Shown in pieces: positions 15,620 to 48,644 of a stretch of DNA of 64,000 bases. The position numbers and the translations under genes were made by a program. Each line of letters begins with the position of its first letter. The stretch's first letter is position 1. The stretch is taken from assembly GCA_031216635.1 (NCBI GenBank), contig CM062276.1, positions 7,427,185-7,491,184 on the forward strand. Direction: 5' to 3'. Source of the DNA: Dissostichus eleginoides (lineage: Eukaryota). Under the pieces are notes generated by a model, which saw only the letters and a list, made by a program, of their open reading frames with translations, was not told the origin of the DNA and searched no databases.

Positions 15620-16460
15620 CTTAGGACAATGAGTATATATGGCAAACTACAGTGTATTATATTTTAAAGAATACTGTTGACACACCTGTAATTTATATAT
15701 AATTATCACATGTATATACAGGGTTTCCCACAAAGACTTTACTTGGGCGGGCCGCCCAGGTATATTAACGGCCGCCAAAGTCTGCCTCACACAGGGTGAC
15801 AGGCTGTCAACATGATGTGGCCTGCCGACATGGCCACTGTCATACAGATCATAAATCAAAGCCCTTAGGCGCTTTCACACCGGAGTACTTTTCCCCGTAC
15901 TTTTCCCGTTTAGTTCCTGGGATTTTGCGTTCACACCAAAAAGAGAACTTGGTTCATGAGAACTTTTACCCCCTTTTTAGTGCCTGCTAGCGAGGTGGTA
16001 CTTTCCTGGGGAGAAAAAAGTTCCAATTTCTGATTGGCTGGGCGAATTGCAAACCATGCCCGTAAAACTCGGAAAAGTTTTGTGAAGCCGCCATTGTATT
16101 TGCTGACATTAGCATTATTAGCATTAGCCCCGCGCACCAACGGAGAGAGAATAACTTATGGCAACACAAAAAAAACATGGGAGGTGGAGTGATACGAAAA
16201 AAATTAACATAAAAGTGGCTAGACTTTGAGTAATGTTAACCTGTGGGGCGTTAGCACTGATGCTAAGTATGCCATCCGGGACACCGACGTTAACTTTACT
16301 CACTTTTCTAGTTTCTTGGAAATCTCCTCAAATTCGCCGTTGTGTTGAGTTATCTATCCTGTGTGTTAGTTTTTCCACGAATAACAAACACAATTCGGGA
16401 ATTTTTCGGTAGAAGAACCGCACAACACACCGATAGCTGCTGCTGCTGAGAGGAGTTAAC

Positions 16461-24443: not shown

Positions 24444-24762
24444 CAAAGAAAGAAACTGAGAAATCTCCAACGAGGCATTTTGGGGAGGAATTTTCTATGT
24501 TAGAGTTTTACTCGCTACAGGGTGTACTTTGAGGGTTTGTGACTCTGCAGACCGTTTACATGCATAAAAACCTACATAACACACAAGGGGATGGGTAATA
24601 ACCAGAAAAGCATGACACCTCTCCTTTAAAGTAACACACTGATTTTCAGACTTTAAAAACACATTTATTTCAAAACTATGGGATTTACCTGCTTACCATT
24701 CCATTTTGTCACTACCGAAAACGATCACGTCAATTACCGAAACGTATCCATATGTTTCGGTA

Positions 24763-28034: not shown

Positions 28035-28194
28035 TCACCAAAGGGACGAGTAGTTGAACTTGATCCGCAGCAGGTACTTCATGCGGGTCTGGGCGGGGTT
28101 GTAAACGATGAACTCGTTGTACAGGAGGTGGTAACGGCCGTCGCTGCTCGCCCCCGTCTTCCCCCCCGGACCCATAGGCACCGTCATGCCGTCC
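28035..28194 (-). CDS. parp2: PARP2 orthologue, last coding exon (…DGMTVPMGPGGKTGASSDGRYHLLYNEFIVYNPAQTRMKYLLRIKFNYSSLW, stop)
   Basis: Acceptor tttctcag. The C-terminus closely matches human PARP2 (...YTLNYNEYIVYNPNQVRMRYLLKVQFNFLQLW), including the catalytic Glu of the HYE triad. Confidence 0.85.
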
Positions 28195-40087: not shown

Positions 40088-40205
40088 TTTGCCTTTTCAT
40101 TGGTGCTGTAGTCCATGTAGACCATGTCGTATTTCCCCGCAACTTTGTCAAAGGTTGCTCGGTGTTCCCACTCATTCTTGGTCTTGTCTGTAAACCTGTG
40201 GGGCG
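40088..40205 (-). CDS. parp2: PARP2 exon (FTDKTKNEWEHRATFDKVAGKYDMVYMDYSTNEKANNQQ)
   Basis: Acceptor cccacag. The donor GTTATA is weak. Aligns with FLDKTKNNWEDREKFEKVPGKYDMLQMDYATN. Confidence 0.75.
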
Positions 40206-41345: not shown

Positions 41346-42415
41346 CTGTTCAGCATCCAAAGATCAGAGAGAAACCATTAATGATGTCAACTGATATTTG
41401 ACTGAAGTACAGGTAAACCATTTTAACCCTAAGGTCTTACTTTAAATATGTTGCTCTGGTGTCTTCACAGGACACACATTTCTACTTCAAAACAATTGCC
41501 ATAATTATTTAATAAGAATATTTTACACTTTCACTGATATATATATCTTGTAACCAACCTCATCACTACCACATATTAATGGATTAAAGGATAATGTAAC
41601 CAGTGGCAGTTTGTTTACATCAATCAAACCAGAGGAGACTGTGAAGTCCACCGCAGACGGACCACTTTTGGACAAAATGTCCTTTCCATTAAAGGCAGCT
41701 CATTGTGGAATAGCCTCCCAACTGAGATACGGGATAGTCCCACTCTCAATAGCTTCAAAGGTCAACTCAAAGAATGGTTGAGAAACAAACAGACGTGCAA
41801 TCACCGCTAAATGCACTTTAACACAGGGGTATCTCCTCTTGCACTTTAGGTAGCTCTTGTATCCTCTCTTGCACTTTAGGTAGCTCTTGTATCCTCTCTT
41901 GCACTTTAGGTAGCTCTTGTATCTCCTCTTGCACTTTACATGTCGTTGCTGCTATATTGTATTACCATGTGGTAAATACTTGTGTATGCTGCTCTTGCTC
42001 TTTTGCACTTTTTGCATATCATGTATTTTGTTTTTGCTATGTTTGTAAAATGTAAACTTCTTAAATGTTTTATGTGAGGGACTGCGGATGGAAATGAGCT
42101 CAAAGCTAAATCAGGCACTGTTACGCTTGACACATTTGAATGTTTTAAGTGTTCATTACCGTGCATTGTCCCTGCCAAATAAACGATTAAATAAAATAAT
42201 CAAATCAAGGTTGTTAATGATATTTTTATATTTCTATATTGTGCTTTTAGTTAGATTTAGATTTTGTCTGAGTGTCAGTATTTTGGCAATACAAATTATT
42301 TCAGATACATTTTATAAAAGAAGCTGAATTTGACCTTGCAAAATTTTAAAAAAAAACTAGGAAGAATAATTCACACTCTTTCAGGAACAATGTAAAAGCC
42401 AAAATGTCTCGTTAC

Positions 42416-42580
42416 CTTCACTTTTGACTTCTTCTTTGGGCATCTTTTGACTTTTTGCCTGACTCTTTCCTCCTCTCTTCTTTTTAGCCACAGGTTGCTG
42501 CTCCGTCTCCTCCTCTTCCTCTTTAACTTCAACTAAAGTCCCATTTTGGGCCGCCGAGTCCCCGGCGTCATTCACACCTT
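42416..42580 (-). CDS. parp2: PARP2 N-terminal basic/acidic exon (EGVNDAGDSAAQNGTLVEVKEEEEETEQQPVAKKKRGGKSQAKSQKMPKEEVKSE); internal exon with no ATG of its own
   Basis: Strong acceptor ctttttgtag and donor G|GTAACG. Lys-rich like the DNA-binding N-terminal region of PARP2. The listed ORF start is a GTG codon, not an ATG. Confidence 0.75.
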
Positions 42581-42953
42581 CTACAAAAAGACAAACATTT
42601 TTAAAACCTTGGTGAAACGTATATTTTTATAAATGTATTTACAATAACATACACAATATGTTTTATCACTTTCTACTGCATACATCTTTGTATTAGTAGC
42701 ATTAAGGAAATCAAATAAATCAGTGGTTAAAGCAATGTGAAATCGGATAACGGTAATTTGTTGGATTTGTTGGATGTAGAACACCGTTAAAAAACTATAA
42801 GACACTTAAGATCCACATGACAAAGTTATTAACTAAATGCAAAGTCTCACACATTGATGGCAACGACAGAAAAAAATGACAACAATTTTAAATAAAATAA
42901 CCTATTTGCAGTTAAACGGATATTACAGACAGATGAAACACAACAACACACAC

Positions 42954-43157
42954 CTGGTTTCCCTGGGTGAGAGCGAATCTTCCTCTTGTACTTGGTGACA
43001 GGATTAATCTGGACCATTTTGTTCAGGTCGACTTCGTACGGCGTCTCCGAGGCCAGAGTGACGGAGGTTTCTCCTGAAGAGACGGCTGAGTCCAACAAGG
43101 CACAGGCTGAAGAAGAGTATGGTTCCCACTGTCCTTCATCTCCTTCCCACTGCCACA
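42954..43157 (-). CDS. parp2: WWE-domain exon (VWQWEGDEGQWEPYSSSACALLDSAVSSGETSVTLASETPYEVDLNKMVQINPVTKYKRKIRSHPGKP) spliced in-frame (phase 1) onto the PARP2 exon at 42580
   Basis: WWE consensus (W-x-W-E...G-x-W-x-P-Y ... V-x-L-xxMxQ). Acceptor tggtcag (an alternative cag lies 8 nt downstream) and donor CAG|GTGTGT. The phase is compatible with 42580 and produces ...SHPGKP-E-GVNDAG.... Confidence 0.6.
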
Positions 43158-43413
43158 CTGACCACAAACAAACACAGAGTAGGGTGGTGAATATCTAACT
43201 TAAAGGGGACCCATTATACTGTTTTTCATCAATATATTATAGGTCTCAGATATATACAAACATCTCTCTGAAGTGTTTGGCTCCAAACACCAAACAGATC
43301 ATTGCAGCATCCCATAATCCCCTCTGTTTCAGCCCTGTTTCAAAAGTGCTGATTCTCTGTCTGTTACTTTAGATGAAAATAAGGAGCCACTCCCCACGCC
43401 CCTCCGAGAGATA

Positions 43414-45022
43414 CAGGACTGTCTCAGAAAATTAGAATATTGTGATAAAGTTCTTTATTTTCTGTAATGCAATTAAAAAAACAAAAATGTCATACATTCT
43501 GGATTCATTACAAATCAACTGAAATATTGCAAGCCTTTTATTATTTTAATATTGCTGATTATGGCATACAGCTTAAGAAAACTCAAATATCCTATCTCTA
43601 AATATTAGAATATCATGAAAAAGTATACTAGTAGGGTGTTCAACGAATCACTTGAATCGTCTAATTAACTCGAAACACCTGCAAGGGTTTCCTGAGCCTT
43701 GAAAAACACTCAGCTTGGTTCAGTAAACTAAATCACAAGTATGGGGAAGACTGCTGATCTGACTGCTGTCCAGAGGACCGTCATTGACACCCTCCATCAG
43801 GAGGGTAAGACACAAAAATAAATTTCTCAAAGAGCAAGCTGTTCACAGAGTGCAGTTTCAAAGCACATCCACAAAAAGTCTGTTGGAAGGGGGAAATGTG
43901 GCAGGAAACGCTGCACAACCAAGAGAGATGACCGCAGCCTTAACAGCATTGTGAAGAAGAGTCGCTTCCAGAATTTGGGGGAGCTTCAAAGACAGTGGAC
44001 TGAAGCTGGAGTCCAGGTATCAAAAGTCACTGTTCACAGACGTGTCCGGGAAATGGGCTACAATAGCCGTATTCCCATGGTCAAGCCACTTCTGAACTCA
44101 AGACAACGGAAGAGGCGTCTGACTTGGGCTAAGGAAAAGAAGCACTGGACAGTTGCACAGTGGTCCAAAGTCCTCTTTTCAGACGAAAGCAAGTTTTGTA
44201 TTTCATTTGGAAGTCAAGGCGCCAGAGTCTGGAGAAAGGCTGGAGAGGAGCAAAATCCAAGTTGCTTGAAATCCAGTGTGAAGTTCCCACAGTCAGCGAT
44301 GGTTTGGGGAGCCATGTCAGCTGCTGGTGTTGGTCCACTGTGTTTCATCAAGCCCAGAGTAAATGCAGCTGTGTACCAAGAGATTTTAGAGCACTACATG
44401 CTTCCGTCTGCTGAAAAGCTCTATGGAGATGAGGAATTCATTTTCCAGCATGATCTGGCACCTGCCCACAGTGCCAAAACCACCAGTAACTGGTGTACTG
44501 ACCATGGCATTACTGTCCTCGATTGGCCTGCAAATTCCCCTGACCTGAACCCCATAGAGAATATGTGGGGTATTGTGAAGAAGAAGCTGAAAGACACCAG
44601 ACCCAACAATGCTAATGAGCTAAAGGCCGCTATTGAAGCATCCTGGGCATCCATAACACCTCAGCAATGCCACAGGCTGATTGCCTCCATGCCACGCCGC
44701 ATTGATGCAGTAATCCGTGCAAAAGGATTCCCAACCAAGTACTGAGTGCATAAATGGACATTTTCAAATGTTTGATTGTGTTTTGCTGTTATAAATCTTT
44801 TTTTTTTACTTGGTCTGAGGAACTATTCTAATTTTTTGAGATAGGATTTTTGAGTTTTCTTAAGCTGTATGCCATAATCAGCAATATTAAAATAATAAAA
44901 GGCTTGCAATATTTCAGTTGATTTGTAATGAATCCAGAATGTATGACATTTTTGTTTTTTTAATTGCATTACAGAAAATAAAGAACTTTATCACAATATT
45001 CTAATTTTCTGAGACAGTCCTG
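43414..45022 (+). mobile_element. Tc1-like DNA transposon copy 2 (1609 bp, TA target duplication, both TIRs present), nested inside a MITE
   Basis: TIRs CAGGACTGTCTCAGAAAATTAGAATATTGTGATAAAG and its inverse, flanked by TA at 43412-43413 and 45023-45024. Confidence 0.9.
43741..44745 (+). pseudogene. Tc1 transposase coding region, copy 2 (premature TAA after MGKTADLTAVQRTVIDTLHQEGKTQK; otherwise a 264-aa intact C-terminal ORF)
   Basis: The 43951-44745 ORF has a full DDE domain (...DESKFCISFGSQGARVWRK...FQHDLAPAHSAKTT...DWPANSPDLNPIENMWGIVKKK...). Confidence 0.8.
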
Positions 45023-46003
45023 TATTTGGTTAAAAAGAACACAAAGGTGCTCTAGGAGGAGATTCAGGTGATAAGGTGGGGGGGGTTACCTTGGTTGGTG
45101 ATTGGCTAATGGTTACACAAGCCATAAAATCGTTATGACATCATAAAGTGGCCAAAATCTGATCAGCTCATTTTCAGACAGATTTTTATATAAATGGATC
45201 AGGACAAAAAGAGAGAGAATCTTTTTCCCTGAAACGTTCAGAATCTCTTTACACAGAGGGGACACATGTTGATGTAGAAGAGACATGAAAAAGTGGATTT
45301 TGCATGATAGGTGACCTTTAAACAACACTTTGAGTTCTGGTAACATGGGACTTCCAAAGCCTTAAAGAGTGAAAAGAGGCACAGATGGTTCAATCATTTA
45401 AATAAATAAAAAACGTTATGATTTAATAATAAATACTTCTGAACTACGTGATACCAACCAAGGATTGTGGAACAACATTTTTATATTTAATATTAATAGA
45501 CTAACTATGTACATTTTACAAGTTGGGACTGATTACATTAACAAACATTTAATGACATTTATTTTCATTGAAACATATTCAGCACAAATACTTAAACAAT
45601 TAATTAAATTAAAATGTATTTAGTGTAGAGCTATACTATATTTTGCAATCTCCATGAAATGACACAGGGTTTATGTTAAACCCATCTAAAAAAAAGAAAA
45701 CACTAAATATTTATGGCAAGAGGTTGTAACTCTATCCCTCCTTTAAAAACTATGCGTGTGGTGTGATTGTTGACAGTGGTGGACATTAACAGGTTTTACT
45801 AACAAGCTCAACTTGTAACATGTATGGTAGCCACTCTGGGAAGAAAGTTGGTTGTTTTCTAAATACTTTGCAACAACAGTAAATCCTGAATAAACCATAT
45901 ATATTACATTATTTATTCCCCTGCTCTCCCTTGCCCAGACTTGTCATCAACTGACGTCGGTGGAGCAGCTAACGTTAGCTTCAAACGGCTAAAGCGCACC
46001 AAC

Positions 46004-46078
46004 CTGTTTTTGACTGAACTTCCTCCGTTTCTTTTGCATCCTGACTTGTTTTACTCCTGGAACTTCTTGTACGCCTCA
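46004..46078 (-). CDS. candidate first coding exon of the WWE-PARP2 gene (MRRTRSSRSKTSQDAKETEEFSQKQ, donor CAG|GTTGGT) in a CpG-rich region shared head-to-head with METTL17
   Basis: ATG plus 25 codons plus a GT donor. Its phase (0) fits only the downstream alternative WWE acceptor at 43150, so the 5' structure is unresolved. Confidence 0.25.
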
Positions 46079-47586
46079 TGGTGGATTATGAAAAATAACT
46101 GGTAGTGAAGTAGGTACAGTAAGAAAGGGACACAACAGAGATGGCGCTAAACTTTCTCCACCACTGTTTCCTGGCCGGTGCCAAAGATCGTGACAAGATG
46201 AATCACTCCGTGGTTAAAACAGAAAACTATTTGGACCTTGGCGCATGCGCTGTACACCTTTATCAAAAATGTTTACAGTTAACATGGTCATGGTATTGAC
46301 AATCAGAATCAGAAATGACTAAGAAATGTACATTGTTACAGTAACGATTGAGTGCCTAACGTAGAATAAAATAAATGTGGAAATAAATACAGGAATAAAT
46401 AAACACTAGAAAAAATTAATAAATAAATGTATAAAATATAAAGTATAAATCATAAAATATAAGTTGAGAATAAAACGGAACACACATATCTTTACATTTA
46501 TTTGTAATAACTAATTAATATATTTATTAATTTCTGTGTCTGTGCGTGTTTCACACAGTGTTGTTCTGCTTGGTAGCCTTGTATTCTCCAATTGTATTTT
46601 CATTTGGAAGTTGTGCACATGTCGTTAACAATGTCTCTGAGTTGCTATAATATTTTATTTCACTTCTTCTGACCAGTCCCACTTTTTTTTGGAAGCTTTG
46701 TTTGTTTCAAGTTGTACACAGTGCAAGGAGAAACACAGTGACTCTTCTCTGTTCAATACATATTTTAAAAGCTTACAGCACCGGGAATTTCCGGCTTATT
46801 CCTGTTTTGTATAAACCTTAAAGCCCCCTGAGACAAAAGTACAATTTGTGATATTGGGCGTATGAAATAAACTTTGATTTACTTTTATTGATGTATTTGT
46901 CGCAAGAAATACACTTCACTTCAGAGCCCTCAAGAGCCATATATAAATGTTTATTGGCGTCAAAAATGGTGTTGCTATTAAAGGTTTTGCTACTACCTAA
47001 AACTCAGTAACAGGAGTTCAATGGATGGCATTTCTAACAAGTTTGAGATTTTTGATTTCGAAGCTCTTCTCCACTATAGCAGTGAGATAACGCACACATT
47101 TAACAAGCAGCACAATACCCACTACGATAAATAAACATGATAACTGCTGGGATTCGTATTGGTGGATGTATTTATTAAAAATAAAAATGACACGTTTCTT
47201 TCATCTTCATATCGTCTCTCGATTTAATAGATATCATTGTTTTCAACCTGTTCCTATTGGTCGGATCCAGCCAGCTGAAAAGGGACAGATCATGTTATAT
47301 GTTGTCACTTCAACAAAAAAGTAAGATTTGGCAATATTTAGTTTGTATTTTGGAAACTTCGGGAGTAAACTAAGCCATAATAAATGAGGACGGAGTGGGC
47401 CCTCCTGTTTGTGCCTATAGCACGCGGAACAGAAATTCGGCACCAAAGGTTCCGTGTAAAGCATTAGTCGGAATTATTTTGTTGACGGAAAAGCTCCTAA
47501 CGTGCCTCCATGCTCATCAGAGTAAGAATGGAACATCAAATAAAAACAATTTGAACACAACAATTGAACTTTCAGGCTCAAAAGAC
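46079..47586. promoter_or_regulatory. Putative bidirectional promoter interval between PARP2 (minus) and METTL17 (plus); CpG-containing (GGCGCATGCGC at about 46240)
   Basis: Head-to-head arrangement. GCGCATGCGC is an NRF1-like palindrome. Confidence 0.3.
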
Positions 47587-47655
47587 ATGGCTTCAAGGAG
47601 ATATGGCGCGTGTGTCCTTTATCAGAGGGCCGCTGTCCTGAGGATGATGTGCAGG
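47587..47655 (+). CDS. mettl17: METTL17 exon 1 (MASRRYGACVLYQRAAVLRMMCR, mitochondrial presequence-like)
   Basis: ATG and an Arg-rich amphipathic N-terminus. Donor AGG|GTGAGT, in phase with exon 2. Confidence 0.5.
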
Positions 47656-48644
47656 GTGAGTGTCATTGAACGCACCATCTTCACCATGGAGGTCAGGCAG
47701 AGAAGATTTTACCATCAGGACTGAGATTAACACACATCTTATCTATAATGTAGCTTTGTTCACAGCTTTATTTAAACACGAGTACATTTTACATTAATAT
47801 GAATGTATTTATAATATTCCTTCAATCTCCAATAGATTTACTGTTTTGCTACTCTGGATTTTGAATCGGAAGTGTACTTGAATGTATTTAAAAAAAACGT
47901 TTTGGTAAAGGTTTACCTGCAGCACATGTCTGAATCTGAGTCTGAATTAAGTGATTATTAAATACCAAACAATGCAAACATGTAAAGCAGTTTATCTTTT
48001 ATATATGGCAACAGGAATATACATTGTGAATTTCTGTATATCTGTTAAAAGTTCATTTTCGATAAGATAGCTATGAATTTATTATTACAAGTTATCTCAA
48101 GTTGAAAATTGCTTTGATGGACTGCAGTTTTTAAATCAAAAACCACAACATTGGCTCTAAAACTATCTAATTTAATTTTTGTCTGTCTATTATTTTTGTT
48201 TTAATCTATGACAGTAAGTAGTTTTGTTGCCCACAAGAGCTCAAATAGGTGGTAAAGAAAAAAAATGTTGTACTTATCATCCAAATCTTATGTATTTGTT
48301 TGTTTATTTGTTTGTTTATTCATCTGTTTATTTATTTGTTGTTTTATGTTTTTGTTTTTCAATAACAAATGCATTTCTTTACGAAAAAAATAAATATATA
48401 TGTTAATAATTTTTGGGAGAAGTGGTGGGATTAAATAAGTGTAAACTTCTTCCCACCCTTTTTCAGATGTGTAATTAAGTAGATCATTTGTTTATATATA
48501 ATTTAGAGTCAGTAATATTTTTGTTTATCAATTTGACACGGCTTAAGTTTGTATAGTATAATAATTCATTTCATTATTATTGTTATTTTTTTGTATTATT
48601 GTTTTACACATTCGAAATAAATCAAATCAAATCAAAATCCTCAG

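Follow-up and report, generated by a model that had tools for sequence, protein, structure and literature searches.

A WWE-domain exon in the PARP2 gene of Dissostichus eleginoides

A 64,000-nucleotide stretch of the Dissostichus eleginoides genome (assembly GCA_031216635.1, contig CM062276.1, positions 7,427,185 to 7,491,184; hereafter the window) carries a PARP2 gene on its minus strand, and our sequence analysis confirmed the predicted splicing of an exon encoding a WWE domain, in frame, onto this gene. We are highly confident that it is an ordinary notothenioid PARP2 in the ancestral, non-mammalian form, in which 17 exons encode a short basic N-terminus, the WWE domain, an acidic and basic linker, a WGR domain, a helical domain and an ADP-ribosyltransferase (ART) domain. 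Its parts are as follows, with a slash marking splice boundaries here and throughout.

PARP2 exon 1: 46004..46079, minus strand; ATG at 46079-46077 in the context caccATGa; encodes MRRTRSSRSKTSQDAKETEEVQSKT (MRRTRSSR...) plus 1 nucleotide
PARP2 exon 2: 42954..43157, minus strand; single 204-nucleotide symmetric exon, phase 1-1; the whole WWE domain, residues 26-93
PARP2 intron 2: 42581..42953, minus strand; 373 nucleotides, GT...AG, acceptor ctttttgtag/
PARP2 exon 3: 42416..42580, minus strand; acidic stretch followed by a basic, Lys-rich linker (..EEEEETEQQPVAKKKRGGKSQAKSQKMPKEEVKSE)
PARP2 exons 4-9: 41345-41275, 40883-40833, 40582-40486, 40357-40282, 40195-40093 and 40014-39861, minus strand; WGR domain and linker
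PARP2 exons 10-13: 37882-37744, 37008-36946, 35797-35663 and 35280-35154, minus strand; helical (regulatory) domain and start of the catalytic domain
PARP2 exons 14-17: 33911-33812, 33184-33086, 32060-31936 and 28194-28035, minus strand; ART catalytic domain

Exon 2 translates as (V)WQWEGDEGQWEPYSSSACALLDSAVSSGETSVTLASETPYEVDLNKMVQINPVTKYKRKIRSHPGKP, its ends quoted as (V)WQWEGDEGQWEPY...KYKRKIRSHPGKP. The original prediction, made from the letters of the window, had called this exon a WWE domain and proposed a profile comparison; that comparison, against Pfam WWE (PF02825), returned a whole-domain match (expectation value (E) 9.1e-18; 64.8 bits against a cutoff of 21.1; model positions 2-66 of 67), which was also obtained at residues 26-87 of the full-length protein. 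Together with the exon flanks, ...gtttgtggtcag/ on the acceptor side (ending ggtcag/) and /gtgtgtgt on the donor side (CAG/gtgtgt), this match bears the assignment out. The ratio of nonsynonymous to synonymous substitution for this exon in comparison with Champsocephalus gunnari (C. gunnari) is 0.22, indicative of purifying selection.

Being of phase 1-1, exon 2 opens with two nucleotides of a codon and closes with one. Its last G joins the AA that follows the acceptor at 42580 to give GAA (Glu), just as had been claimed for a phase-1 donor completing the codon at that acceptor, and the frame past this join runs on into GVNDAGDS...AKKKRGGKSQAKSQKMPKEEVKSE. Exon 3 is the counterpart of the N-terminal region of mammalian PARP2 and aligns with human PARP2 chain residues 66 onward. 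The open frame 5' of it extends only to 42626 and holds no in-frame ATG, the start given for its open reading frame (ORF) is a GTG, and the sole in-frame ATG of the exon lies 12 codons from its end (SQKMPKEE). A check of intron 2 for an in-frame ATG leading into exon 3 found none. The earlier statement that exon 3 has no ATG of its own thus stands, apart from this late one.

The seventeen-exon gene model

The 5'-most exon had been left open in the original prediction, and the true ATG that was missing from it could be placed in exon 1, at 46079-46004, which closes the ORF. The donor of this exon, ACAG/gttggt, is of phase 1, and its last G and the first two bases of the WWE exon, TG, make up GTG (Val). 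Exon 1 shares 91% identity with the C. gunnari locus, where the flanks tccacc and gttggt are kept, and the same N-terminus and junction (..SKTVWQWEG..) occur in protein models from C. gunnari (P0001), D. mawsoni (P0155), Ataeniobius (P0002) and Serrasalmus (P0005).

The complete model runs from 46079 to 28035 on the minus strand. Every acceptor is AG, and the donors are GT in all exons but exon 8 (40195-40093), which is followed by a GC-AG intron with the donor AAG/gcaaac at 40093/40092; the GC donor gcaaac is also present in C. gunnari, and orthologous protein models use the same NEK/EEN junction. Exon 17 ends in ...KFNYSSLW followed by a stop codon at 28035. Once one base is put back in exon 11 and one in exon 13, the product is 648 amino acids long. 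In this corrected protein, Pfam profiles identify a WGR domain at residues 183-262 (E 3.9e-24), PARP_reg at residues 297-427 (E 6.2e-46, with one G restored per site) and the PARP catalytic domain at residues 442-642 (E 5.6e-76). WGR, helical domain (PARP_reg) and ART in this order is the arrangement of clade 1, DNA-dependent PARPs. Aligned to human PARP2, the catalytic H-Y-E triad falls on H493 (LLWHGSR), Y527 (GIYFADM) and E623 (LYNEFIVY).

Human PARP2 is the best match among solved structures (E 2.9e-222, 743 bits), followed by PARP1 (3e-131, 442 bits) and PARP3 (4e-54, 188 bits), in agreement with the earlier naming of the gene as a PARP2 orthologue. The description of the downstream exons as a clean PARP2, with WGR, helical domain and H-Y-E triad, likewise holds, with the qualification that exons 11 and 13 each carry a one-nucleotide deletion. 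The alignment with human PARP2 covers fish residues 126-648. Because it starts at residue 126, exons 1 and 2 and part of exon 3 are without a mammalian counterpart, which also bears out the earlier remark that mammalian PARP2 has nothing corresponding to the WWE domain. For annotation, the gain is a PARP2 gene model with its true first exon, a confirmed WWE exon, a Tc1 element placed in intron 1 and two sites marked for checking against reads.

The same architecture in other species and on spliced RNA

Protein databases were searched with the N-terminal 276 residues as query, and a second search added further species; because few or none of the database models listed were longer than about 550 amino acids, the evidence for the architecture comes from partial models that span the domains. 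Many PARP2 models carry PF02825 together with PF05406, PF02877 and PF00644. The C. gunnari model P0001 matches with 95% identity over 100% coverage, and its N-terminus, MRRTRSSRSKTSKDETEEVQSKTVWQWEGDEGQWEPY, has the same exon 1/exon 2 junction. Among teleosts, PARP2 with a WWE domain was found in Oryzias melastigma, Ataeniobius, Prochilodus, Serrasalmus, Albula, Clarias, Xiphophorus and Liparis and, in the second search, in Dissostichus mawsoni, Haplochromis and Channa; outside teleosts, it was found in the bichir Erpetoichthys, the paddlefish Polyodon, the turtle Chelydra and the bivalves Argopecten and Solemya. The phases of exon 1, the WWE exon and exon 3 fit together, and more than 15 species have kept the three exons as a unit. 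A WWE domain was never present in the mammalian PARP2 matches of either search.

At the DNA level, the C. gunnari locus (GCA_036324595.1, CM070433.1; L001) aligns with the window in every exon and keeps all of the splice flanks. At the RNA level, we recovered an intronless contig of 2593 nucleotides with 5' and 3' untranslated sequence (Logan contig 349 of run SRR11928275; L002), which reads MRRARSTRNK...SKTVWSWKGDDDQW...KYKRKIRSQTIKTEAVKENG...KAPVD...WGR...HD...ART...NYSSLW in one frame. This contig is the spliced PARP2 mRNA of another teleost, and both N-terminal junctions are shown in it at the RNA level. The comparison with other teleost parp2 models that the original prediction had proposed has therefore come out in its favor, with the WWE exon conserved and the same junctions used in the orthologous models and in the RNA contig. 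At about 586-635, the contig also has one in-frame TAA (KA*LGK, where other species have KAKLGK) that splits its ORF into 157 and 465 amino acids, and which may reflect either an error in sequencing or a genuine nonsense allele.

Two tandem WWE domains are found in the PARP2 proteins of Polyodon (P0008), Chelydra (P0021), Argopecten (P0013) and Solemya (P0031), and the single teleost WWE domain aligns with the PARP2-proximal domain of these two-WWE proteins. This distribution suggests, on sequence grounds, that WWE domains were lost stepwise, from two (paddlefish, turtle and bivalves) to one (teleosts) to none (mammals).

It had further been claimed that this architecture was undescribed in vertebrate PARP2, and this part fails, both on the number of database models and on the literature. 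Perina et al. (2014; DNA Repair 23:4; PMC4245714, section 3.1.1) describe non-mammalian PARP2 homologues with one or more N-terminal WWE domains. Earlier surveys missed the layout, with WWE confined to clades 2 and 3 in Citarelli (2010) and to subgroup 4 in Otto (2005), yet the layout is already known and routinely annotated. A WWE domain is part of the normal PARP2 of fish, frogs, birds, turtles and molluscs; mammals alone are without it. The WWE domain of fish PARP2 is thus not a discovery made by this window; its significance is that the mammalian PARP2 on which nearly all mechanistic and drug work has been done is a derived form that lost the domain, while the ancestral PARP2 carries its own putative ADP-ribose-binding module with a fully conserved pocket.

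Alternative gene structures

Several observations weigh against reading the gene as an ordinary WWE-containing PARP2. In this species, the junctions 46004/43157 and 42954/42580 are predicted from the sequence and the orthologues. As it stands, the assembly has two single-nucleotide frame-breaking deletions, and its ORF stops after residue 379. WWE-less teleost models exist, namely isoform X2 of Mugil and isoform X3 of Phyllopteryx. Finally, we searched the literature for a functional or experimental study of any PARP2 WWE domain and found none, the 2014 survey being the only source that mentions the domain.

On another reading, which the original prediction had itself named as one that would refute it, PARP2 would begin downstream of the WWE exon, and that exon would be part of a different gene further upstream or a relic that is not expressed. 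This reading could draw on the annotation of Conger conger, where a separate 'WWE domain-containing protein' (P0048) stands beside a WWE-less PARP2 model (P0029). However, P0048 spans MRRTR, the WWE domain and the linker and continues into the PARP2 exon KAPVDSECTAKLGK, so that it represents a split PARP2 model. Exon 3 also offers no in-frame ATG that could serve as a start until its last 12 codons, and both the spliced RNA and the conservation of the first three exons as a unit speak against this reading. The next gene upstream of PARP2 is METTL17, which lies on the opposite strand. We regard this reading as highly improbable.

Another possibility, which would add to the main explanation rather than replace it, is that the WWE exon is a cassette exon and that the gene could make PARP2 with and without the domain. 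As exon 2 is symmetric (204 nucleotides, phase 1-1), skipping it keeps the frame, and an exon 1-exon 3 splice made in silico does stay in frame (..QSKT-E-GVNDAG..). The predicted WWE-less isoforms of Mugil cephalus (X2, P0107) and Phyllopteryx taeniolatus (X3, P0119) point the same way, but these arise through alternative first exons that join at exon 4 and not by a simple skip of exon 2, and the only spliced RNA contig recovered includes the WWE exon. A cassette exon is on balance rather unlikely. The N-termini of P0107 and P0119 are unrelated to that of the main form, are joined at exon 4 (EVVKTVVMKGKAPVD) and come with neither the WWE domain nor the basic linker; they may reflect alternative promoters.

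Two frame-breaking deletions in the assembly

The reading frame of PARP2 is interrupted in this assembly at two places. In exon 11, the gap lies between 36979 and 36978, where the window reads CGTACAGA-GAGGAG and C. gunnari reads CGTACAGAGGAGGAG (IRTEEELKEK). In exon 13, it lies between 35186 and 35185, with GCCGGGGA-ACCAGC in the window and GCCGGGGAGACCAGC (AGETSNFLSQMHNR) in C. gunnari. The first stop in the uncorrected frame comes directly after ...PPVIRTERS. An alternative acceptor in exon 11 (gtacag/A) that would restore the frame was rejected, as its use deletes LKTPPVIRT, which is kept in all orthologues.

If both deletions were real, PARP2 would be a recently inactivated pseudogene in this species and the WWE-containing protein would not be made here. 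The deletions do shift the frame into stop codons, neither sits in a long homopolymer run, and the C. gunnari assembly bears two different frameshifts in the same gene, and its model is split in two. As a control, the neighbouring METTL17 coding sequence shows 0 indels between the assemblies over 845 nucleotides, but this stretch is too short for significance, since by our own estimate about 1.7 indels would be expected and the probability of seeing none is about 0.18. Against inactivation, both sites are intact in C. gunnari DNA and in the proteins of Notothenia coriiceps and D. mawsoni, the splice sites of all 17 exons are kept, and there is no further stop or out-of-frame indel. Moreover, the corrected PARP2 compared with C. 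gunnari gives an omega of 0.20 (dS 0.064, dN 0.013), and identity to C. gunnari is 94-100% in exons and about 90% in introns. Because omega is low and exons are better kept than introns, the gene has been under constraint, and for nearly all of the divergence time. We consider it probable, with good confidence, that both one-nucleotide deletions are residual assembly indels rather than a real inactivation, and we hold the pseudogene reading to be improbable.

The C. gunnari PARP2 gene has two one-nucleotide insertions of its own. In exon 10 (L001 about 15749-15888), a T is inserted at about 15837 in AAGAAGAA-T-GGGC, and at the very end of exon 17 (L001 about 24495-24655), an extra C stands at about 24650, before TTTGGTGA. 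The C. gunnari annotation splits PARP2 into models of 361 and 242 amino acids. Across the two notothenioid assemblies, this one well-conserved gene thus shows four independent frameshifts.

Fold and ligand pocket of the PARP2 WWE domain

Among solved structures, the fish WWE domain matches by sequence the second WWE domain of DTX1 (1e-12), TRIP12 (8e-9), HUWE1 (4e-7) and, weakly, RNF146 (0.11). An AlphaFold2 model of the domain built from 17 homologues is confident, with a predicted local distance difference test (pLDDT) score of 89.4, and has the element order E-E-H-E-E-E-E, that is, two strands, a helix and four strands, and so predicts the WWE fold, a six-stranded half beta-barrel capped by one alpha-helix. 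When this model was compared with the PDB using Foldseek, the top 24 matches were all WWE domains, led by HUWE1 with ADP-ribose and TRIP12 with ADP or ATP (template-modelling (TM) scores of 0.81-0.87; root-mean-square deviation (rmsd) of about 1 A over 60 residues).

Residue roles in the pocket were taken from PMC11269756 and PMC10877565. According to Munzker et al. (2024; PMC11269756), the contacts shared by these WWE domains are a Gln that hydrogen-bonds adenine, a stacking Trp (Tyr107 in RNF146) and a Tyr and an Arg that engage the proximal phosphate; HUWE1 specifically makes contacts through Tyr1658, Asn1669, Thr1672, Asn1674 and Arg1676, and HUWE1 and TRIP12 prefer ADP-ribose to iso-ADP-ribose. 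In the fish protein, Trp29, Gln75, Tyr66, Arg84, Asn77 and Thr80 align with HUWE1 W1619, Q1667, Y1658, R1676, N1669 and T1672, respectively, and Tyr82 stands at the position of HUWE1 Asn1674 and TRIP12 Thr825. All contact positions except that of Asn1674, six in number, are conserved in every aligned PARP2-proximal WWE domain, from fish, turtle and mollusc. Because these six residues are kept from fish to molluscs, it is likely, judging from sequence and model, that the WWE domain of fish PARP2 binds an ADP-ribose unit.

The original prediction had called the domain an iso-ADP-ribose reader. Binding of ADP-ribose remains likely from the sequence, but the iso-ADP-ribose label is too specific. 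At the position of RNF146 Tyr107, the fish domain has Trp29, and its distal-phosphate loop is acidic (EGDEGQW), so that it shows neither the Tyr at the stacking position nor the basic distal-phosphate loop of the iso-ADP-ribose-specific RNF146 type. These two features would place the fish pocket with the HUWE1/TRIP12 type rather than the RNF146 type.

It is also conceivable that the domain has been kept as a protein-interaction or structural module and that ADP-ribose binding has been lost. Some WWE domains are reported to bind poly(ADP-ribose) (PAR) poorly, and the fish loop that matches the distal-phosphate loop of RNF146 is acidic. Set against this are the conservation of all six HUWE1/TRIP12 contact positions (Trp, Tyr, Gln, Asn, Thr and Arg) in the fish, turtle and mollusc domains and the superposition of the AlphaFold2 model on HUWE1 and TRIP12 in their ligand-bound states. 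We judge loss of binding to be unlikely, with only a small chance of being correct.

A proposed role in PAR-dependent recruitment

For the function of the domain we propose a scheme in which the WWE domain would bind the ADP-ribose unit of mono- or poly-ADP-ribose in its HUWE1/TRIP12-like pocket, with Trp29 stacking, Gln75 contacting the adenine, Tyr66 and Arg84 engaging the proximal phosphate, and Asn77 and Thr80 adding to these contacts. The domain could thereby tether PARP2 directly to ADP-ribosylated chromatin or to PAR made by PARP1, and recruitment of fish PARP2, perhaps along with its activation, could follow as a PAR-dependent second wave. Mammals would have lost the WWE exon or exons. 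Both ligand binding and the recruitment role are what we infer, our literature search having found no experiment on any PARP2 WWE domain.

In mammals, PARP2 depends in part on PAR made by PARP1 to reach sites of damage. This recruitment has been ascribed to its basic N-terminus, which binds PAR directly and also stimulates the synthesis of branched chains (Chen 2018; PMC6089979), or to XRCC1 (Lin 2025; PMC11838041). For the fish enzyme, a WWE domain of its own would provide a direct path to the same outcome. We tentatively suggest, as a possibility that we would not yet favor, that the WWE domain is the ancestral in-cis PAR or ADP-ribose sensor of PARP2, serving second-wave recruitment and perhaps PAR-stimulated branching, and that mammals passed this job to the basic N-terminus and XRCC1. 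If this is true, fish Parp2 would offer a natural system in which to test how the coupling of reader and writer affects PAR chains.

Neighbourhood of the gene

Two further features lie in and beside the gene.

Tc1/mariner-type DNA transposon in PARP2 intron 1: 43411..45025, plus strand; 1615 bp; outside the gene product
METTL17 (Rsm22 family): 47587 onward, first coding exon 47587-47718, exons to about 53509, plus strand; head-to-head with PARP2

The transposon ends in 202-nucleotide terminal inverted repeats that are 99% complementary, and its ORF at 43951-44745 encodes 264 amino acids from a GTG start with matches to DDE_3 (8.5e-18) and HTH_Tnp_Tc3_2 (6.4e-15). The orthologous intron of C. 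gunnari does not contain it, and the alignment there skips from 45026 to 43413 of the window over only 2 bases of L001; because that intron is without the element, the insertion is, on this sequence comparison, a recent and lineage-specific one.

METTL17 begins about 1.5 kb from the PARP2 ATG, and the same head-to-head order is found in the C. gunnari locus. Mammalian PARP2 lies head-to-head with the RNase P RNA gene (RPPH1), an arrangement that differs from that of the window; neither an RNase P RNA gene nor any other Rfam family was found in the 64-kb window at gathering thresholds. Between the two genes, at 46250-46241 and about 165 nucleotides upstream of the PARP2 ATG, an AT-rich region (38% GC) contains the palindrome GCGCATGCGC, which we take to resemble an NRF1-type promoter motif.

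Within the PARP2 introns, one interspersed repeat of roughly 450-570 bp is present in two copies, at 39737-39166 (intron 9) and 36344-35913 (intron 11), and also matches a copy in the METTL17 region of C. gunnari (L001 7206-7831). Intron 3 holds a short tandem repeat at 41818-41961 that translates on the minus strand as reiterated QELPKVQE(R/E)I units and is probably a minisatellite.

Comparison with known systems

The closest relatives of the window gene are the non-mammalian metazoan PARP2 proteins surveyed by Perina et al. (2014), with which it shares the order of WWE domain, basic linker, WGR, helical domain and ART. It is directly orthologous to these proteins, and other teleost models show exactly its exon 1/WWE and WWE/linker junctions. 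Within this group, the number of WWE domains differs, with one in teleosts, including this species, and two in tandem in paddlefish, turtle, scallop and Solemya. Human and mouse PARP2 share with the fish protein the WGR, helical and ART domains, the H-Y-E triad and a Lys-rich N-terminal linker, but they have no WWE domain, and roughly the first 125 fish residues are without a mammalian counterpart.

For the WWE domain itself, HUWE1, TRIP12 and DTX1 are the closest solved relatives by both sequence (1e-12 to 4e-7) and fold (TM 0.81-0.87), and in common with the fish domain they have the Trp that stacks on adenine, the Gln, the phosphate clamp of Tyr and Arg, the Asn and the Thr. In these proteins, however, the domain is attached to ubiquitin ligases, whereas in the fish it is attached to a PAR polymerase. 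The WWE domain of RNF146 (Iduna), the reference iso-ADP-ribose reader, has the same fold (TM about 0.83), and the fish domain presumably shares the equivalents of its Gln153, Tyr144, Arg163 and Trp114, in a numbering that we mapped from the RNF146 sequence. Sequence similarity to RNF146 is nevertheless weak (E 0.11), Tyr107, which confers iso-ADP-ribose specificity, is replaced by Trp in the fish, and the basic distal-phosphate loop of RNF146 (Arg110) contrasts with the acidic EGDEGQ of the fish domain. Finally, the clade 3 PARPs (PARP7, 11, 12, 13/ZAP and 14) resemble fish PARP2 in combining WWE and ART in one polypeptide, but they are mono-ARTs or inactive, are without WGR and helical domains and have a WWE domain that adjoins the ART; their WWE domains are also more distant from that of the fish, taking Foldseek ranks 15-24 with TM scores of 0.62-0.71.

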